Source: Octopus vulgaris
Taxonomy: Eukaryota
Reading direction: 5' to 3'
Assembly (NCBI GenBank): GCA_951406725.2
Contig: OX597819.1
Span: forward strand, 67,208,001-67,272,000
DNA: 64,000 bases
Shown here in pieces: positions 8,255 through 41,089 of the stretch (positions are counted from its first letter, which is position 1; each line of letters starts with the position of its first letter). Made by a program: the position numbers and the translations under genes. The notes beneath the pieces are model-generated. The model made no database searches. It saw only the letters and a list, made by a program, of their open reading frames with translations, and was not told the DNA's origin.

Positions 8255-8440
8255 AGATCGTTAGCCACTAAACCTTTTTCTGTTTTCTGTCTGTTTATTT
8301 CTGTGTTCCTTTATGTTTAAGAGCGTAAGCTCGAAACGTAAGAGACTTTCTCACTTCCCGAGCTTTAAACTAATACATTTGTTTGTTGTTTATATGCCCA
8401 TCGTCACCTTTTGTTTTTTGTAAATTCTCACTATATATTC
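8255..8440 (+). mobile_element. Solo 3' terminus related to the 36-40 kb Neptune PLE
   Basis: gagcgtaagctcgaaacgtaagagac and the downstream ttcccgagc..taatac..tttgtttgtt align to 35890-36025. Confidence 0.7.
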
Positions 8441-12944: not shown

Positions 12945-13130
12945 TAGCTGAAATTTATTAACAAAAGACAAAGGCAGGTATATGATCAACAAGAAAGTGT
13001 ATTAGTTTGACGTTCTGGAAAAGGAAAAAGCCGTTTACCTTTCGAGCCTAGACTCTTCAACAAAACCGAATAAGAGCAAATAAATTGAGAGAGAATGAAA
13101 AAAACATGAAAATTTTAGCGCTCCATCTCT
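12945..13130 (-). mobile_element. Solo 3' terminus related to the Neptune PLE
   Basis: Reverse complement contains ttgttgaagagtctaggctcgaaa, matching ctgttgaagagcgtaggctcgaaa at 35892. Confidence 0.6.
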
Positions 13131-13924: not shown

Positions 13925-14098
13925 ACAACACGTTCTTTTTTTCATTCTCTCTCCATTTTCTCTCATTCCTTTCTGTCGAAGAGCGTAGGTTCGAAACGTA
14001 AAAGACTTTTCCCTTTTTCCTGAGCGTCAAACAAATACACTTGCTTGTTGTTCATGCACTAGTTTTCGTCTTTGTTTTTCAATAAATTCAAACTATAT
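13925..14098 (+). mobile_element. Solo PLE 3' terminus with a CUGUCGA hammerhead-like motif
   Basis: ccttt-CTGTCGA-a-gagc-gtag-gttc-GAA-ACGT-A-aaaga at about 13968-14005. The flanks align to 35880-36025. Confidence 0.75.
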
Positions 14099-32643: not shown

Positions 32644-33387
32644 TGTGTGTATACTACATACATGTATACACACACACTCGCATGATATTTAATTAAGTTC
32701 GCTCTATGTGTGTATGGGACTGAAACGCAAAACACGACCGAACTTGTCCATCGAGAAAGAAATATATAAACAATATCATGAATCAAAACAAAACAAGACA
32801 ATTATATCTACTATGGTATTTGACGATGTTAAATTAATTACTTATCTTATTGTTAGCAGAAGCTGCTGACCGCACAGATAAGAGTTTTATGGACAGCTGA
32901 TCTTCTGTTGGGCGATATTTACATCTAAATATCTCTCCATATGTTTTGGTAGTAATTAGAACGCTCTGGGAGGTGAATGTGTTTCTTTAACTCTGGTAAT
33001 TGGTTTAGCAGTAACATTCACATCAGTGGAGCAAGAAGGACCATTTGTCCAAATGGATTCTGTTCTCATTGTTTCTATTCACTTCAGTTGTTAATAACAT
33101 TTAGGATCTGTGTGAATACAATCTACTTTCTGTTTAGCGTGTCCCACTGAGAGAAACTGCAACTCGCTTCTGTCTACTGAAACATTGTTTAAGTGTACAA
33201 ACCCTAACTTTATTTCACCACAACTAGTTTGGTCAAGAAGTGCGTGCGCGCGTGTGTGTGTCTCTGTGTGTGTATTGTGGTAAGATTACCATCATGTTTG
33301 GTTGACTGAGATTGTGACGCGTCACGAGTTTCTAGTTTTCTACACACAATGCCATGGATCTGAAGACGTCATGCGCATACTCAAACA

Positions 33388-33419
<32 letters not shown>

Positions 33420-33484
33420 ACATCTGTCTCTCTATTTATCTATCTATCTATATATATATACATTTTTTGATATATATATATATA

Positions 33485-33920
33485 TTTAAAGTTTCAGCTC
33501 AGAGCTGCGGCCATGCTGATGGACCGCCGTTTTCCGCTACACTGTTACTACTAGGGGCCTTCTTTAATATGTAGCCCTTGATGAAGAATGGAGTTTGATA
33601 GAGTTACACCCATTTGCACCTCTTGCCGTGAGGTAGGCTCAACTGGGACTCTCGACAGGAAGAGGTCCAGCTTTGATTAAAAGACCCCTGCATCTACTTT
33701 GTGCAAGTTCCTCAGACTCTTTGCGAGAATATTAAAAAGCTGTGGGCCCTTGAAACCCAGGCTGTTGCAGTAACTGGTCCTGAAGCGTGATGGCATTGCT
33801 GGGATCTTTGGCACCATGCAGTGTCGTCCCATTCTGGCATAGGTGTAGCTTTCAATGCCAAAATTTGGCACAGTTCCTTCCAGGATCTTCCAGATATATA
33901 TTACTGCATACCTCTCCCAT
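33485..33920 (-). mobile_element. 5'-truncated 3' end of a CR1/L2/Jockey-group LINE
   Basis: ORF 33677-33973 contains ERYAVIYIWKILEGTVPN..NSLGFKGPQLFNIL..LRN, typical of the C-terminus of these ORF2 proteins. It ends in the hairpin cagctctgagctg next to (TA)n. Confidence 0.8.
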
Positions 33921-33922
33921 AT

Positions 33923-36028
33923 CGAATGGGCCCCAACTATGCGAACCTGTTCGTTGGCTATGTTGAGGCCCAAATATTCTCTAATTTCACTGGTCCCACT
34001 CCTGAACTATATGGTCGTTATATTGACGACATTATCGGTGCCACCTCACTCTCCCGCGAACATCTAGATTCCTTCCTCTCTTTCGTCCAATCTTTCCATC
34101 CAGCCCTCCACTTCACTTCCACTATCTCCAACACCTCTGTCTCCTTCCTCGACATTTCGGTTAGCATTCTTCACTCCACTCTTACCACCTCCATTCACTA
34201 CAAACACACAGACTCACACTCATACCTCAACTTCTCTTCCTCCCACCCAGAACACACCAAGCTTTCCATCCCCTATTCCCAATTCCTCCGTCTACGTAGG
34301 CTCTGTAGTGACGACCATGACTTTGAGACTCAGTCTCAACGTATGGCTCACCACTTCACCCTACGTGGATACCCCCTCACCACTATCCACACCGCCCTTG
34401 CCAGAGCACGGTCCGTGGACCGTGTATCTGCTCTCTCTCCCCGAACCCGCCCTGTAGTCTCCCGCCTCCCTTTACCCCTCACTTACCACCCCACGACCCT
34501 ACGTCTCCAACGCACCATTCTTCGAGCTTTCCGTCATCTCCAGTCCGACCCGTCCACTTCACACCTCTTCCCTAACCGACCCCTCCCCTCTTTCAAACGA
34601 GCCCACAACCTTCGAGACCTTTTGGTCCATAGCTCCTTCCCTGACCCTACCTCCCAACCCGGCTCGTTCCCCTGCTCCCGCCCACGTTGCCGCACTTGCC
34701 CTTACCTCTCCAACACCACCCGCCTCACTAGCACCCACCATCGACCCTATCCCATCATCCACTCCTTCACCTGCACCTCCAGCAATATTATCTATTGCAT
34801 CTCTTGCTCTCTCTGCAATTCCTTGTATATCGGACAAACGGGACGCCGCTTGGCTGACCGGTTCGCGGAACACCTTCGTGACATCCACCTTGCGAACGAC
34901 ACACCGGTCTCACGCCATTTCCGCTCCACCGGTCACTCCTTGCAACACCTATCTGTGTTCGGTTTGTCCTTACACAGAGGCCATGCGGATTCCCGTTTGC
35001 GCCGTGAACAGGAATTAATCTTCTCTCTTCGCTCTTATACGCCATTTGGTCTCAACTCTCCCCCCTCCTCATCTAACCCCCCTCTCCCCCCTCCTCACCT
35101 ATCCTTTCTCCCCCGACCCCTACTTCTACAGTCCTTCATCCTTTCACCCCTACTCCCCTTCCCTTCTTCCCTCTTTCTCCCTCCCTCTTCCCCTTCCCTC
35201 TGCTCCCTCACTCCCTCTCTCCCTCTTTCCTCCTTCATCCCCCTCCTCCCCTTCCTTCTCCCCCATCCTCTCCTCTTCCCCCTTCTCCTCCCCCTCTTCT
35301 TCCCCTCGCCTTCTCTCCCCCTCCCCCTCTTCTCCTCACTACACCACATGACTTTACACATCACATCACATATGATGTGCCATACTAATACACACACCAA
35401 CTAATACATACTAATACGTACTAATACATACCAGTACATACTAATACTTACACCAACCCTATACATACACACGTCCAGACCCCGCATACGCACTTATACT
35501 CTCACACACACACACACACACCTATACCTACCAATACGTACTAATACATACTAATACATACTAATACATACACCAACCCCATACATACGCACGTCCAGAC
35601 CAATCTTACGCACTAATACTCTCTCATACACACACACACACACACACACCCTTATACATACTAATACATACACCAACCCTATACATACACAGATCCAGAC
35701 CCCTCCCACGCACTTTTAGCTGGTCCCTCAACCCTTTTATCAACCCTATTATCTCCCCTTATTTCGCTCTCGCGTCTCATGTTTGATCTTTGACCTCTGG
35801 CCGAAATCAGATCGCCATGTTGATTCGTTAGCTACTGCACGCATTTTTTTTCTCTCCTTCTTTCTGTGTTTTTCTCTCTCTGTGTATCTTTCTGTTGAAG
35901 AGCGTAGGCTCGAAACGTTAAAGACTTGTTTTATTTATATTTCCTGAGCGCCATACTAATACAATTGTTCGTTTGTTTTCCACCTGCCTTCGTCTTTTGT
36001 TTATTTTCATAAAGCTTCCCGTTATATA
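33923..36028 (+). mobile_element. 5'-truncated tandem copy (pseudo-LTR) of the Neptune-type PLE
   Basis: Almost identical to 38397-40510, with a few substitutions and indels in the C/T tract. Encodes the RT C-half and GIY-YIG. Confidence 0.95.
35887..35924 (+). ncRNA. Minimal hammerhead-like motif with a CUGUUGA (A6U) core
   Basis: tcttt-CTGTTGA-a-gagc-gtag-gctc-GAA-ACGT-T-aaaga. Stems I and II are perfect and stem III is palindromic. Confidence 0.7.
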
Positions 36029-36641
36029 TTATGCGCTCACGTGGTCTCACTTTCATCCTATATTCTACCAATACCACTATCAACACTTACCTCTACCTTG
36101 GATTTTCTTTACCTCTTGGATACTTACCATTGGCTGCACCTCTCTTTCGCGGATCAAAGTGACTTTGCATTGATGTGAAATCCTTAAAAAATATACCACG
36201 ACGTCTACACATTTCTCACCTTGAACTTTCAACCTTGAACTTGTGTGCATAAACTGTCCCGTTTGTTGTATTTTTATTTTCTCTTATATTACCACTTTTT
36301 TTACATTCATTTCATGCTTCCCACATTTTCCTGAATTTTTGTTCTCCTTTCCGTCTTTCTTCCCTCTCTGGATGTCCTTTCTCCGTTTCCTCTGCCTGCA
36401 CCCCCCTTTTTTTTGCCTCCCCCTCTCTCTGCTTCCCTTCTTTCTTTCCCTTTTCCGTTTGCCCCGTCTTTTCTGCCCCTATCGCTTACTTATCTAGTTT
36501 TTTCATACGATTATTATTTTTTTGTTTTTTTGAACGTTTGTTTTTTCCCCTTTTTTCGCTATCCCCTTTTTTTCTATTTTTTTCATACGATAATTTTTGT
36601 TTTTTTTGTTTTTTCGAACGTTTTTTTTCCGCTATCCCATC

Positions 36642-39600
36642 ATGCCGGATCCTAGGTCCTACCTCCTCACCCTCCATCACCGTTTGAAGGATCATCTACG
36701 TTCGCTTCCTGTATATTGCCTTCAGCCGTCCGTTAATCTCTCTCTACTTCTTTTTAAAAAAACCCGCTTTTCTAGCCATGTCTCTTTCCTAAGCCGCTGC
36801 CTACATCACCGACTCATCCCTAAAGGTTTCCGCCTCCACTTCCACCCTGCTCTCCACTCGGATTCTTCCATCTTACCCATACTCCGCACCACATCTTACC
36901 GCCTTATGCGGGCCACCATTCGCTCCAATCTCTCCAAACTACATGCCATCAACCGCCTTCTTCCTCCTGCTTTCTCCACCTTCTTCTCCTCTCTGCCGCC
37001 TCTCTATGCTCCAAACACGCTACGCTTCATTATCCATTTGAATCAACTCTTCCATCAATTTCTTTCTGATACCAAACTTCGTAAACTCCAATCACTCTTC
37101 CATTCCACCCTACCCGACGCCACTACCCCAACTCCTCCACCACCCTTCTCCCCTCCCGATAGGCTCCATCCACCCACACCTAACCCCACTGCCCCTCCCT
37201 ACAACCCCTTCTCCCCTCCCGTTAGGCTCCATCCACCTACACCTAACCCTACTGCCCCGCCCAACCACCCCCCACACACCTCCCCAATCCCTCTCCCTCA
37301 GACCTCCACGAGACCTACCACCCCTCCTACTTCTATTCCACCCACCCCTTCTCCACTTCCGTCTGTTGTTACCATTCCCCCCGATCTTCCCCTCTCTGCG
37401 GCTGAACGCTCCGTCCTTGGTAGGGGTCTGCGTTTCATCCCCCTCACTCCATCCTGTAAGGAATTCCAGACGCGAGTTGATGTCCACAGCTTTGTGCGCC
37501 GTGTCCGGTTGGGTGCGCATTACCACGACTCGCCACCCACACCCAACGAAGAGGACGACTGCTTCACTGGCCTGGGCCGCCGACCATCCCCGTGGACGCC
37601 TGCACCTGGCCAGATCCTAGCAGTGGATCTTTTCGCGGGCGCTTGTCAGCGTGCATTGGAGCGGTTCAACTTCTCCAGGCGCCAACGCCGCCTCAACATC
37701 TCCCCGGCTGAGCTCTTGGCTCTTCGTTCCCTCCAACGGCGCGCTGACATTATCATCAAACCGGCTGACAAGGGTGGAGCTGTAGTGGTGTGGCGCGCGG
37801 ACCTCTATAGGGCCGAGGCTTTCCGCCAACTCAATGACACCTCCTTCTATTCCCCTCTGCCCTCTAACCCCACACGTAGCTACCAACAGACGGTATCCTC
37901 TACTGTCCAAGACCTCATCTCGTCCTCCCGTCTCCCCCGCACCGCATCCAACCTAATTGTGCGAACCCCACGTACCCCCACCATTTACTTCCTCCCCAAA
38001 ATCCACAAACCCAACAACCCTGGCCGCCCCATCGTCTCCGCCTGTAACTGCCCCACGGAGCTCATCTCTAAATACCTCGACCGTGTCCTTGCCCCCCTAG
38101 TGGCATCTCTTCCCTCCCACATCCACGATACCAACCATGCTCTCCGGCTTTTCAACTCTTTCTCCTTTCCTCCCGGCTCCTCCAAAATCCTTTTTACTAT
38201 GGACATCCAAAGCCTCTATACTGTTATCTCTCACCACGAAGGACTGCAGGCCCTTCGACACTTTCTTGACCTCCGCTCTAACCCTGTACCTGACACCTCC
38301 ACTCTCATTCGTCTGGCCGAACTTGTCCTTACTCTGAACTGCTTCTCGTTCGCGGGCGAGTTCTACCATCAGGTCTCGGGAGTGGCCATGGGAACGCGAA
38401 TGGGCCCCAACTATGCGAACCTGTTCGTTGGCTATGTTGAGGCCCAAATATTCTCTAATTTCACTGGTCCCACTCCTGAACTATATGGTCGTTATATTGA
38501 CGACATTATCGGTGCCACCTCACTCTCCCGCGAACATCTAGATTCCTTCCTCTCTTTCGTCCAATCTTTCCATCCAGCTCTCCACTTCACTTCCACTATC
38601 TCCAACACCTCTGTCTCCTTCCTCGACATTTCGGTTAGCATTCTTCACTCCACTCTTACCACCTCCATTCACTACAAACACACAGACTCACACTCATACC
38701 TCAACTTCTCTTCCTCCCACCCAGAACACACCAAGCTTTCCATCCCCTATTCCCAATTCCTCCGTCTACGTAGGCTCTGTAGTGACGACCATGACTTTGA
38801 GACTCAGTCTCAACGTATGGCTCACCACTTCACCCTACGTGGATACCCCCTCACCACTATCCACACCGCCCTTGCCAGAGCACGGTCCGTGGACCGTGTA
38901 TCTGCTCTCTCTCCCCGAACCCGCCCTGTAGTCTCCCGCCTCCCTTTTCCCCTCACTTACCACCCCACGACCCTACGTCTCCAACGCACCATTCTTCGAG
39001 ATTTCCGTCATCTCCAGTCCGACCCGTCCACTTCACACCTCTTCCCTAACCGACCCCTCCCCTCTTTCAAACGAGCCCACAACCTTCGAGACCTTTTGGT
39101 CCATAGCTCCTTCCCTGACCCTACCTCCCAACCCGGCTCGTTCCCCTGCTCCCGCCCACGTTGCCGCACTTGCCCTTACCTCTCCAACACCACCCGCCTC
39201 ACTAGCACCCACCATCGACCCTATCCCATCATCCACTCCTTCACCTGCACCTCCAGCAATATTATCTATTGCATCTCTTGCTCTCTCTGCAATTCCTTGT
39301 ATATCGGACAAACGGGACGCCGCTTGGCTGACCGGTTCGCGGAACACCTTCGTGACATCCACCTTGCGAACGACACACCGGTCTCACGCCATTTCCGCTC
39401 CACCGGTCACTCCTTGCAACACCTATCTGTGTTCGGTTTGTCCTTACACAGAGGCCATGCGGATTCCCGTTTGCGCCGTGAACAGGAATTAATCTTCTCT
39501 CTTCGCTCTTATACGCCATTTGGTCTCAACTCTCCCCCCTCCTCATCTAACCCCCTCTCCCCCCTCCTCACCTATCCTTTCTCCCCCCGACCCCTACTTC

Positions 39601-39872
39601 TACAGTCCTTCATCCTTTCACCCCTACTCCCCTTCCCTTCTTCCCTCTTTCTCCCTCCCTCTTCCCCTTCCCTCTGCTCCCTCACTCCCTCTCTCCCTCT
39701 TTCCTCCTTCATCCCCCTCCTCCCCTTCCTTCTCCCCCATCCTCTCCTCTTCCCCTTCTCCTCCCCCTCTTCTTCCCCTCGCCTTCTCTCCCCCTCTTCT
39801 CCCCCTCCCCCTCTTCTCCTCACTACACCACATGACTTTACACATCACATCACATATGATGTGCCATACTAA
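36642..39872 (+). CDS. PLE polyprotein: reverse transcriptase plus C-terminal GIY-YIG endonuclease
   Basis: Uninterrupted frame with first ATG at 36642. Motifs are KPADKG, YFLPKIHK, PGRPIVS, MDIQSLYT, GVAMG..MGPNYANLF, RYIDD, FLD, the Cys linker CSRPRCRTC (Neptune hallmark), IIYCISCSLC..LYIGQT, RFAEH and GLN. Confidence 0.93.
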   Translation: MPDPRSYLLTLHHRLKDHLRSLPVYCLQPSVNLSLLLFKKTRFSSHVSFLSRCLHHRLIPKGFRLHFHPALHSDSSILPILRTTSYRLMRATIRSNLSKLHAINRLLPPAFSTFFSSLPPLYAPNTLRFIIHLNQLFHQFLSDTKLRKLQSLFHSTLPDATTPTPPPPFSPPDRLHPPTPNPTAPPYNPFSPPVRLHPPTPNPTAPPNHPPHTSPIPLPQTSTRPTTPPTSIPPTPSPLPSVVTIPPDLPLSAAERSVLGRGLRFIPLTPSCKEFQTRVDVHSFVRRVRLGAHYHDSPPTPNEEDDCFTGLGRRPSPWTPAPGQILAVDLFAGACQRALERFNFSRRQRRLNISPAELLALRSLQRRADIIIKPADKGGAVVVWRADLYRAEAFRQLNDTSFYSPLPSNPTRSYQQTVSSTVQDLISSSRLPRTASNLIVRTPRTPTIYFLPKIHKPNNPGRPIVSACNCPTELISKYLDRVLAPLVASLPSHIHDTNHALRLFNSFSFPPGSSKILFTMDIQSLYTVISHHEGLQALRHFLDLRSNPVPDTSTLIRLAELVLTLNCFSFAGEFYHQVSGVAMGTRMGPNYANLFVGYVEAQIFSNFTGPTPELYGRYIDDIIGATSLSREHLDSFLSFVQSFHPALHFTSTISNTSVSFLDISVSILHSTLTTSIHYKHTDSHSYLNFSSSHPEHTKLSIPYSQFLRLRRLCSDDHDFETQSQRMAHHFTLRGYPLTTIHTALARARSVDRVSALSPRTRPVVSRLPFPLTYHPTTLRLQRTILRDFRHLQSDPSTSHLFPNRPLPSFKRAHNLRDLLVHSSFPDPTSQPGSFPCSRPRCRTCPYLSNTTRLTSTHHRPYPIIHSFTCTSSNIIYCISCSLCNSLYIGQTGRRLADRFAEHLRDIHLANDTPVSRHFRSTGHSLQHLSVFGLSLHRGHADSRLRREQELIFSLRSYTPFGLNSPPSSSNPLSPLLTYPFSPRPLLLQSFILSPLLPFPSSLFLPPSSPSLCSLTPSLPLSSFIPLLPFLLPHPLLFPFSSPSSSPRLLSPSSPPPPLLLTTPHDFTHHITYDVPY

Positions 39873-40371
39873 TACACACACCAACTAATACATACTAATA
39901 CGTACTAATACATACCAGTACATACTAATACTTACACCAACCCTATACATACACACGTCCAGACCCCGCATACGCACTTATACTCTCACACACACACACA
40001 CACACCCTATACCTACCAATACGTACTAATACATACTAATACATACTAATACATACACCAACCCCATACATACGCACGTCCAGACCAATCTTACGCACTA
40101 ATACTCTCTCATACACACACACACACACACACACCCTTATACATACTAATACATACACCAACCCTATACATACACAGATCCAGACCCCTCCCACGCACTT
40201 TTAGCTGGTCCCTCAACCCTTTTATCAACCCTATTATCTCCCCTTATTTCGCTCTCGCGTCTCATGTTTGATCTTTGACCTCTGGCCGAAATCAGATCGC
40301 CATGTTGATTCGTTAGCTACTGCACGCATTTTTTTTCTCTCCTTCTTTCTGTGTTTTTCTCTCTCTGTGTA

Positions 40372-40409
40372 TCTTTCTGTTGAAGAGCGTAGGCTCGAAA
40401 CGTTAAAGA
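40372..40409 (+). ncRNA. Minimal hammerhead-like motif with a CUGUUGA (A6U) core, second copy
   Basis: Identical to 35887-35924. Confidence 0.7.
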
Positions 40410-40506
40410 CTTGTTTTATTTATATTTCCTGAGCGCCATACTAATACAATTGTTCGTTTGTTTTCCACCTGCCTTCGTCTTTTGTTTATTTTCATAAAGC
40501 TTCCCG

Positions 40507-40549
<43 letters not shown>

Positions 40550-40990
40550 AGAAAAATTACCAAAATGTATAAGTAGTGAATGAGTAAAGCACCGGCACAG
40601 TTTATGCGTCTATGTGCCTGAGTGTAAGAGAGAAAAAAGACAACAAAATCCAAAGCAGGACAAGTATCTCAAGTAATTTAGGATATTTAATTAGGGTAAA
40701 GTGAATTCGAAGTCTTACAGCTGTTTCAGAGATATTCCAAGAGTTAGGCTTGCATGATCGTACACTAGGTTTTCCATCATGAGCGACAAGTTGAGTATGT
40801 GGGTGAGATAGGTGTGGGAAAGAATGAATGAGTGCTAAAGTAAAATAAATAACAAAAAAATTTTTAATGAAAATAATGTGTCAGTATTATTCATCGTAAG
40901 GGTCAGTTAAGGGTGAGAGGTCAGATGTTATGATTTTTGGTGAAGTGGAGGAGGAAGGCATTTATGTCTATTAATTAAATACATCACTAG
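40550..40990 (-). mobile_element. Probable old PLE 3' terminus with a degenerate hammerhead
   Basis: The reverse complement of 40712-40787 reads gtcg-CTCATGA-..-GAA-ACAGCTGT-A-agac (palindromic stem III, GUA triplet). Bounded by (TA)n. Boundaries are approximate. Confidence 0.5.
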
Positions 40991-41089
40991 TAAACTAAAC
41001 TCATCATATTCTCCATATATATTCATATATATATATATATATCTATATATATACAGACATGAATATGTATTCTGGCACACATATATATT

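Follow-up and report, generated by a model that had tools for sequence, protein, structure and literature searches.

A hammerhead-like motif with U at core position 6 in a young lineage of Penelope-like elements of Octopus vulgaris: attenuated ribozyme or retained signal?

Position 6 of the hammerhead ribozyme core is normally A, and fixed. A Penelope-like element (PLE) of Octopus vulgaris, inserted in the 64,000-nucleotide (nt) stretch analysed here (the window: assembly GCA_951406725.2, contig OX597819.1, positions 67,208,001 to 67,272,000, forward strand), carries two identical hammerhead-like motifs spaced 4,485 nt apart, each with U at this position (U6). The locus raises the question of whether such a motif can still cut RNA and, if not, what keeps it in place. 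That PLEs need hammerhead cleavage for mobility is itself disputed, a circle model of 2014 standing against the in vitro dispensability reported in 2024. The reading we favour, with chances about evenly balanced, is that the motif is an attenuated, likely protein-assisted hammerhead that would cut slowly at best and make RNA circles. If U6 is active, the natural hammerhead consensus widens, and searches based on CUGANGA overlook large families; if it is inactive, a ribozyme fold has been retained for a non-catalytic role.

Motif 1 consists of stem I (35887-35891/35920-35924), the core CUGUUGA (35892-35898, with U6 at 35895), an extra A (35899), stem II (35900-35903/35908-35911), GAA (35912-35914), the palindrome ACGU (35915-35918) and U17 (35919), after which the cut is predicted. 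A preliminary description of the locus, made from its letters, had both stems perfect and the motifs at both termini. The letters are exact, and stem I is perfect yet weak (four A-U pairs and one G-C); the predicted fold is a closed hairpin, however, and the motifs are not terminal, each lying 110 nt inside the 3' end of its pseudo-long terminal repeat (pLTR). Stem II has only 4 base pairs (bp), with the loop GUAG. The window held 12 matches to a loose core pattern with one mismatch against 8.5 expected, which is chance level. An Rfam covariance-model scan of 33000-41000 returned no hammerhead match at E<=1; Rfam hammerhead models expect helix III, so this null is uninformative for a motif that lacks it.

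The hammerhead features present are the GAAA box, the NUH site, G10.1-C11.1, an extra base after A9 and palindromic positions 15.2/16.2; the numbering, like the rule of an unconstrained N7 and an H17 other than G, is that of the consensus given in PMC7151607 and PMC11014351. The motif thus resembles the minimal hammerheads (min-HHRs) described for metazoan PLEs in PMC4209133, which stand in both pLTRs and combine a short stem I, an extra base between 9 and 10.1, G10.1-C11.1, a palindromic 15.2-16.2 without helix III and a U-rich 5' flank. It differs in that A6 is found in 56 of the 56 representatives of Fig. S3 of that paper, whose search descriptor required A6, whereas U6 is fixed here; the core variants described there are U3-A8, and stem II is only 4 bp in the octopus motif.

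U6 as a trait of a young lineage

U6 is a lineage trait and not the decay of a single copy, as the preliminary description had proposed from three solo tail copies in the window, all of which do have U6 and match the element's tail at 72-77%. The 2.8-Gb genome (227 contigs) was searched for exact matches to the full motif with positions 6 and 7 left free, giving 20,506 matches against 0 for a reversed-pattern control. Position 6 is U in 19,515 of these (~95%), so that the box reads CUGUNGA rather than CUGANGA, A in 375 and, by subtraction, C or G in 616. A sample independent of the core, the first 90 of 19,440 loci retrieved with a tail anchor outside the motif, contained 73 placeable motifs (15 of the 17 dropped loci are truncated and 2 have indels). 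Here U6 occurs 71 times and A6 twice; N7 is U in 29, A in 24, C in 15 and G in 5, H17 is A in 58, U in 12, G in 2 and C in 1, and the remaining core positions are at least 93% constant, except the CpG-prone G16.2 at 88%. The genome-wide consensus, which the preliminary description had named as a check, is therefore U6 and not A6.

The family is young, because at least 150 stop-free reverse transcriptase (RT) copies are 98-100% identical (the 150 scored among 9,325 candidates for a 217-residue RT query); it is also recently amplified and very abundant. The earlier view of a young, intact PLE holds for the window copy, whose open reading frame (ORF) of 1,076 amino acids (aa) is open throughout. 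From the same 150, 60 long young copies were chosen, mostly for long open frames, and they show U6 in 100 of 100 sense-strand motifs of the U7/U17 type. Contigs from four sequencing runs under four organism labels give no alternative letter at 35895 at the 5% level, contigs being prone to drop rare variants, so close relatives probably share U6. A metagenome scan for the U6 motif gave 5 matches, none with stem I or the tail, which were taken as chance. No report of a U6 hammerhead was found in the literature searched, the largest survey, Lünse et al. 2017, lying outside that search, and the U6 core is provisionally a new hammerhead variant.

Canonical-core motifs with the same ACGU are also present (7,964 genome matches; control 28). 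Most belong to one A6 sister family, exemplified by loci L180-L208, which has the same stem II, a 3-nt loop and a related tail that also stops at (TA)n; the total of about 8,000 includes other canonical families. Stem II, ACGU, the (TA)n 3' end and a tail element GAGCG are common to the A6 sister families and the U6 lineage; a few distant families have a different but compatible stem II. With position 6 excluded, a tree of 147 motif regions (midpoint root, bootstrap not fully settled) splits off six A6 sister copies (100/99) and arranges the U6 copies in a ladder-like series whose last step is the window's subfamily. The A6 copies that fall within this series are dispersed, the pattern expected of back-mutations; they are over-represented in the oldest group (13 of 21 A6-U7 copies, counted by eye), an excess that may mark the transition or merely age. 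A6 is probably the ancestral state. An amplifying autonomous family with some 20,000 U6 copies, beside A6 sisters with the same stem II, offers a natural U6/A6 comparison in the presence of the cognate protein.

Constraint on the motif and its predicted fold

Sequence comparison across the lineage indicates that the motif is under constraint. Among the majority letters of nine subfamilies, none of the 14 core and stem III columns varies, whereas 27 of 76 tail columns do (Fisher p=0.008), and the ORF fragments of older U6 copies retain only ~70-80% DNA identity. Catalytic G8 and G12 are unchanged in 9 of 9 subfamilies, and loop II is invariant too. Across the nine, N7 occurs in four states and H17 in two, A and U but not G, which is the pattern of freedom shown by a hammerhead. 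The nine-subfamily sample was drawn from the tree and partly fetched by core patterns, making the tail-anchored set the fairer support; two features of the subfamily alignment, the A at position 6 in its oldest group and the 10.2 calls in lower case, are artefacts of the retrieval patterns. Covariation, another check named by the preliminary description, is thin: it is absent within the U6 lineage, and the sole compensatory pair, 2.4-1.4 of stem I, appears against the sister families (C-G in 24 of 27 U6 copies; G-C in 12 and G-U in 11 of 27 A6 sisters).

The most stable predicted fold of the window motif is a hairpin with the core paired to AACG, not the open hammerhead. It comprises stem I, the pairs U4-G16.2, G5-C15.2 and U6-A15.1, tandem G-A pairs and stem II; in the window copy the pairing of U4-G5-U6-U7 with A14-A15.1-C15.2-G16.2 has a probability of 0.98, and the closed hairpin is calculated at -10.8 kcal/mol, the open core at -8.4. 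U6 is predicted, therefore, to close the core into a competing, inactive helix in free RNA. The probability of the U6-A15.1 pair falls to 0.82 in A7, 0.50 in C7 and 0.15-0.48 in G7 copies, and to ~0 in all A6 copies; since the pairing is weaker in these U6 copies, and some natural A6 copies show equally large energy gaps for other reasons, the modelled lock is not uniform across copies. The motif's fold energy is ordinary relative to shuffles (z -0.9), and fold energies ignore tertiary contacts and protein.

A natural change at position 6 with the remaining core kept has a precedent in the phage Bcep176 hammerhead, in which A6C retains low activity (PMC3088659) and is rescued by Mn2+ to near-normal rates (PMC7151607). 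That motif has C at position 6, exists as a single phage copy with tertiary support and has a measured activity, whereas the U6 motif is without helix III, numbers ~20,000 copies and is known from sequence. No measured A6U rate was found in the literature searched.

Templates, copy ends and possible cleavage

Both pLTRs of a copy appear to derive from one template, to judge from the variants they share. In 45 copies (the window's and 44 fetched; 16 of the 60 long copies, without anchors, were dropped) covering 17,142 non-repetitive bases, variants also present at other loci are carried by the two pLTRs together in 34 cases and by a single pLTR in 2, figures that become 16 and 2 outside an indel-prone site; private variants are in both in 5 of 33 cases. 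These haplotypes provide an independent line of evidence for the rebuilding of partial tandems from a single template, and they led us to reject an origin of the tandem by independent insertion beside an existing copy. Some homogenising step is needed, for a mutation in the downstream repeat of a tandem donor never reaches the upstream one through simple read-through. Candidates are gene conversion, a template jump from one homologous stretch to another and a unit-length circle; for PLE tandems, a circle made by cleavage and ligation was put forward in 2014 (PMC4209133). Back-splicing to a unit-length circle was considered and rejected, as no good donor, read from the sequence, follows at the matching point. 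Within 35840-35907, the long pyrimidine tract before the motif and the UAG that ends loop II resemble a splice acceptor; contigs of sequencing runs guessed to be RNA contain no splice-like joint in 35700-39540.

The predicted long-range stem listed in Table 1 has its arms on either side of the putative RT start, and the internal junction is the only place where it can form. In L054, a copy of an old subfamily, the 3' arm at the junction is altered and matches the 5' arm of its own subfamily. This is a candidate RT-positioning stem. Poseidon elements need sequence downstream of the RT start site (PMC11167929), and in line with this the modelled, junction-only stem favours initiation at the internal junction, from where copying of the full ORF would take a circle or a jump. 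In the prediction, the GAGCG tail element, retained even in the A6 sisters, pairs with the bases that directly follow the internal TA tract.

An attenuated hammerhead would join these observations as follows. The lineage fixed A6-to-U while its other core positions stayed unchanged in at least nine subfamilies, and a strongly slowed ribozyme likely survives. In free RNA, U6 would pair with A15.1 in the inactive hairpin; in a read-through transcript, the two motifs would occasionally refold as a double hammerhead, probably protein-bound, and cut after 35919 and 40404. Pairing through ACGU, as the preliminary description suggested, can indeed be drawn, and these cuts would bound a 4,485-nt unit holding the whole ORF. 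The unit would be joined into a circle, and RT, primed from nicked (TA)n, would start at the TA tract and round the circle more than once to yield partial tandems. A hammerhead of this dependence is reported from Anolis, where that of the Poseidon element PAc requires the element's own protein in order to cleave (Frangieh et al. 2024, PMC11167929). Like the octopus element, PAc has a hammerhead that lies upstream of the internal RT start fixing its 3' end, AT-rich targets and a tandem layout. It differs in a canonical core overlapping the ORF start, whereas the U6 motif lies 720 nt before the ATG; in an RT start not homologous to the target, whereas the octopus element's 3' end lies in a TA tract matching (TA)n; and in the linker of its protein, which is CX4CxxC in the octopus element. 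A stronger proposal, that U6 is an evolved safety catch in which the element's protein opens the hairpin lock, the two motifs cut, and a circle forms for rolling reverse transcription, seems to us unlikely. Were it true, the genome's dominant active PLE lineage would carry a protein-gated ribozyme with a core undescribed in nature, and the matched pLTR haplotypes would be a genomic record of the long-proposed RNA circle.

Several lines of evidence weigh against cleavage. A cut linear RNA used as template should make copy 5' ends pile up at position 1.1. The youngest subfamily seems to show this, with 25 plus 3 of 100 listed (TA)n-to-AAAGAC junctions (108 in all) at the cut site; this site shares TA microhomology with the (TA)n target, and the peak was rejected as evidence of cleavage when it vanished against controls with matching microhomology. 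On contigs C1-C17, under a strict (TA)3 rule, 14 junctions fall at the cut site against 11 at a loop II TA control (counted by eye, with slightly different anchors), and 86 matches of A17 subfamilies give distinct junctions numbering 5 at 1.1, 5 at 1.2, 5 at 1.3 and 6 at the TA site (by eye). Among the 60 long copies, 44 reach the internal junction; 41 of these extend through the upstream motif, 3 terminate within the tail and 0 end at the cut site. No genomic footprint was thus found of the RNA ends for which the preliminary description had asked. Because copy 5' ends show no excess there, the template appears to be uncut or re-joined RNA. The 3'-end anchor is found in 55 of the 60, mostly followed by TA repeats; since copies have their 3' end 110 nt beyond the cut site and in most cases cross the upstream motif, a linear 4,485-nt product would not suffice as template, and circularisation or an RT jump would be required. 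A template jump, moreover, explains the shared haplotypes without any cutting.

The conservation is also open to objection. Retrieval of part of the nine-subfamily sample by core patterns biases it toward invariance, stem II shows no compensatory change within the U6 lineage (of 590 matches with a changed 10.2, the first 100 are almost all single-sided decay), and every conserved position fits the closed hairpin equally well, so that conservation is no proof of catalysis. The drawn active dimer lies 6.7 kcal/mol above two folded monomers, or 3.7 with A6 substituted. In Mg2+, A6C slowed the one ribozyme concerned by several orders of magnitude (PMC7151607), and the CUGA-turn mutants of a deep scan had low activity, the sole rescue described there being a C3-G8 swap (PMC9901934). 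For Poseidon, dead hammerheads are reported not to have impaired insertion in vitro, and no RNA-seq ends to have mapped to the hammerhead site (PMC11167929).

Much of this would be expected if the motif did not cut, the stable hairpin made by U6 being kept as a protein-binding or RT-positioning signal and the tandems arising through RT jumps on uncut linear RNA. We regard this as a serious possibility, somewhat short of probable. The high U6-A15.1 pairing of the window copy and its loss in all A6 copies, the missing cut-site footprint and the insertion in vitro of Poseidon with a dead ribozyme all agree with it, as does the report that Naiads without canonical hammerheads still form tandems and reach high copy numbers (PMC8557442). 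So too does the abundance of the U6 lineage, ~2.5 to 1 over canonical-core matches in searches whose patterns were not identical. A hairpin signal fits less well with the weak closing helix of G7 copies, which is not uniformly kept, whereas a free N7, an H17 that is never G at subfamily level, and unchanged catalytic G8 and G12 match the rules of catalysis.

Improbable, in our estimate, is a functionless motif in which U6 is a near-neutral passenger fixed by chance in a master lineage, with too little time for decay: covariation is lacking within the lineage, loop II is as invariant as the core and the motif folds no better than shuffles, yet core and stems have kept their majority letters while the tail and older ORF fragments diverged. 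That loop II GUAG, the extra A or a metal ion makes up fully for U6, so that the motif cuts as well as the A6 sisters, can be nearly dismissed: Mn2+-rescued A6C hammerheads and the family's great activity suit it, but a competing helix is predicted, the cut site has left no footprint and the core bears no compensating change relative to the A6 sisters.

The element and its insertion

The element is, by its protein sequence, an otherwise ordinary endonuclease-positive (EN+) PLE of the Neptune/Nematis type, assigned to the two clades jointly only, because its RT, C-terminal GIY-YIG and CX2-5CxxC linker match the marks given in PMC8557442; microsatellite bias and partial tandems are further likenesses. 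Canonical hammerheads are stated there to be universal in these clades, from which the U6 lineage departs at position 6. The protein has the RT motifs ADKGG (375; DKG 376) and RYIDD (617; YIDD 618) and a Pfam RVT_1 match (E=3.7e-7). A linker CSRPRCRTC (residues 836-844; CX4CxxC, of the CX2-5CxxC type) separates RT from the endonuclease, whose GIY-YIG region YCISCSLC...YIGQT (876-891) contains two inner cysteines, with H...HF from 902. The Pfam scan of the protein itself did not list a GIY-YIG domain; PF01541 is present in many of its homologues, among which turtle, shark, snail, urchin, cnidarian and tick proteins are named.

The insertion at 33923-40514 is single, a 5'-truncated copy followed by a full unit. 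Its right end enters (TA)n where the internal junction carries a short TA tract (Table 1), which marks the fixed 3' end of copies and would be the RT start. The partial-tandem arrangement with pLTRs was confirmed in the window copy and in fetched copies.

Table 1. Features of the insertion and related tail copies, in window coordinates
Feature	Coordinates	Strand	Remarks
Upstream pLTR	33923..36029	+	5'-truncated copy of the element's 3' 2.1 kb; 99.15% identity to 38397-40514
Downstream pLTR	38397..40514	+	Last 2.1 kb of full unit
Hammerhead-like motif 1, minimal type I	35887..35924	+	Core CUGUUGA; from sequence, fold and genome counts
Hammerhead-like motif 2, identical to motif 1	40372..40409	+	Core start 40377; U6 = 40380; predicted cut after 40404
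Tail after predicted cut site, 110 nt	35920..36029	+	Ends in TA tract 36023-36029
Predicted long-range stem	35945-35954 / 36031-36039	+	Pair probabilities 0.65-1.0
Intact ORF, 1,076 aa	36642..39872	+	RT, linker, GIY-YIG, low-complexity C-terminal extension
(TA)n microsatellite receiving the element's 3' end	40508..40547	n/a	From sequence; likewise in most copies
Decayed solo tail copy, U6	8284..8391	+	72.9% identity; core at 8313
Decayed solo tail copy, U6	12957..13065	-	72.2% identity; core ~13063
Solo tail copy of older C7 subfamily, U6	13969..14077	+	76.5% identity; core at 13973

The ORF continues across a low-complexity pyrimidine tract (39540-39872), and the length of the open frame is very variable among near-identical copies, so the last ~110 residues are probably dispensable. 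Two 63-nt direct repeats, 90% alike, occupy 37143-37268 and encode a proline-rich stretch between the N-terminal domain and RT. Copies L248 and L297 have more than two units or an upstream repeat longer than 3 kb, which fits copying past one full turn. Motif-bearing tails are paired in inverted orientation, 100-300 nt apart, at L013/L014, L054, L055 and L299/L300, as in other PLEs. On contig C12, at about 6,050,000-6,096,000, one short insertion recurs four times at ~15-kb spacing in a segmental tandem array.

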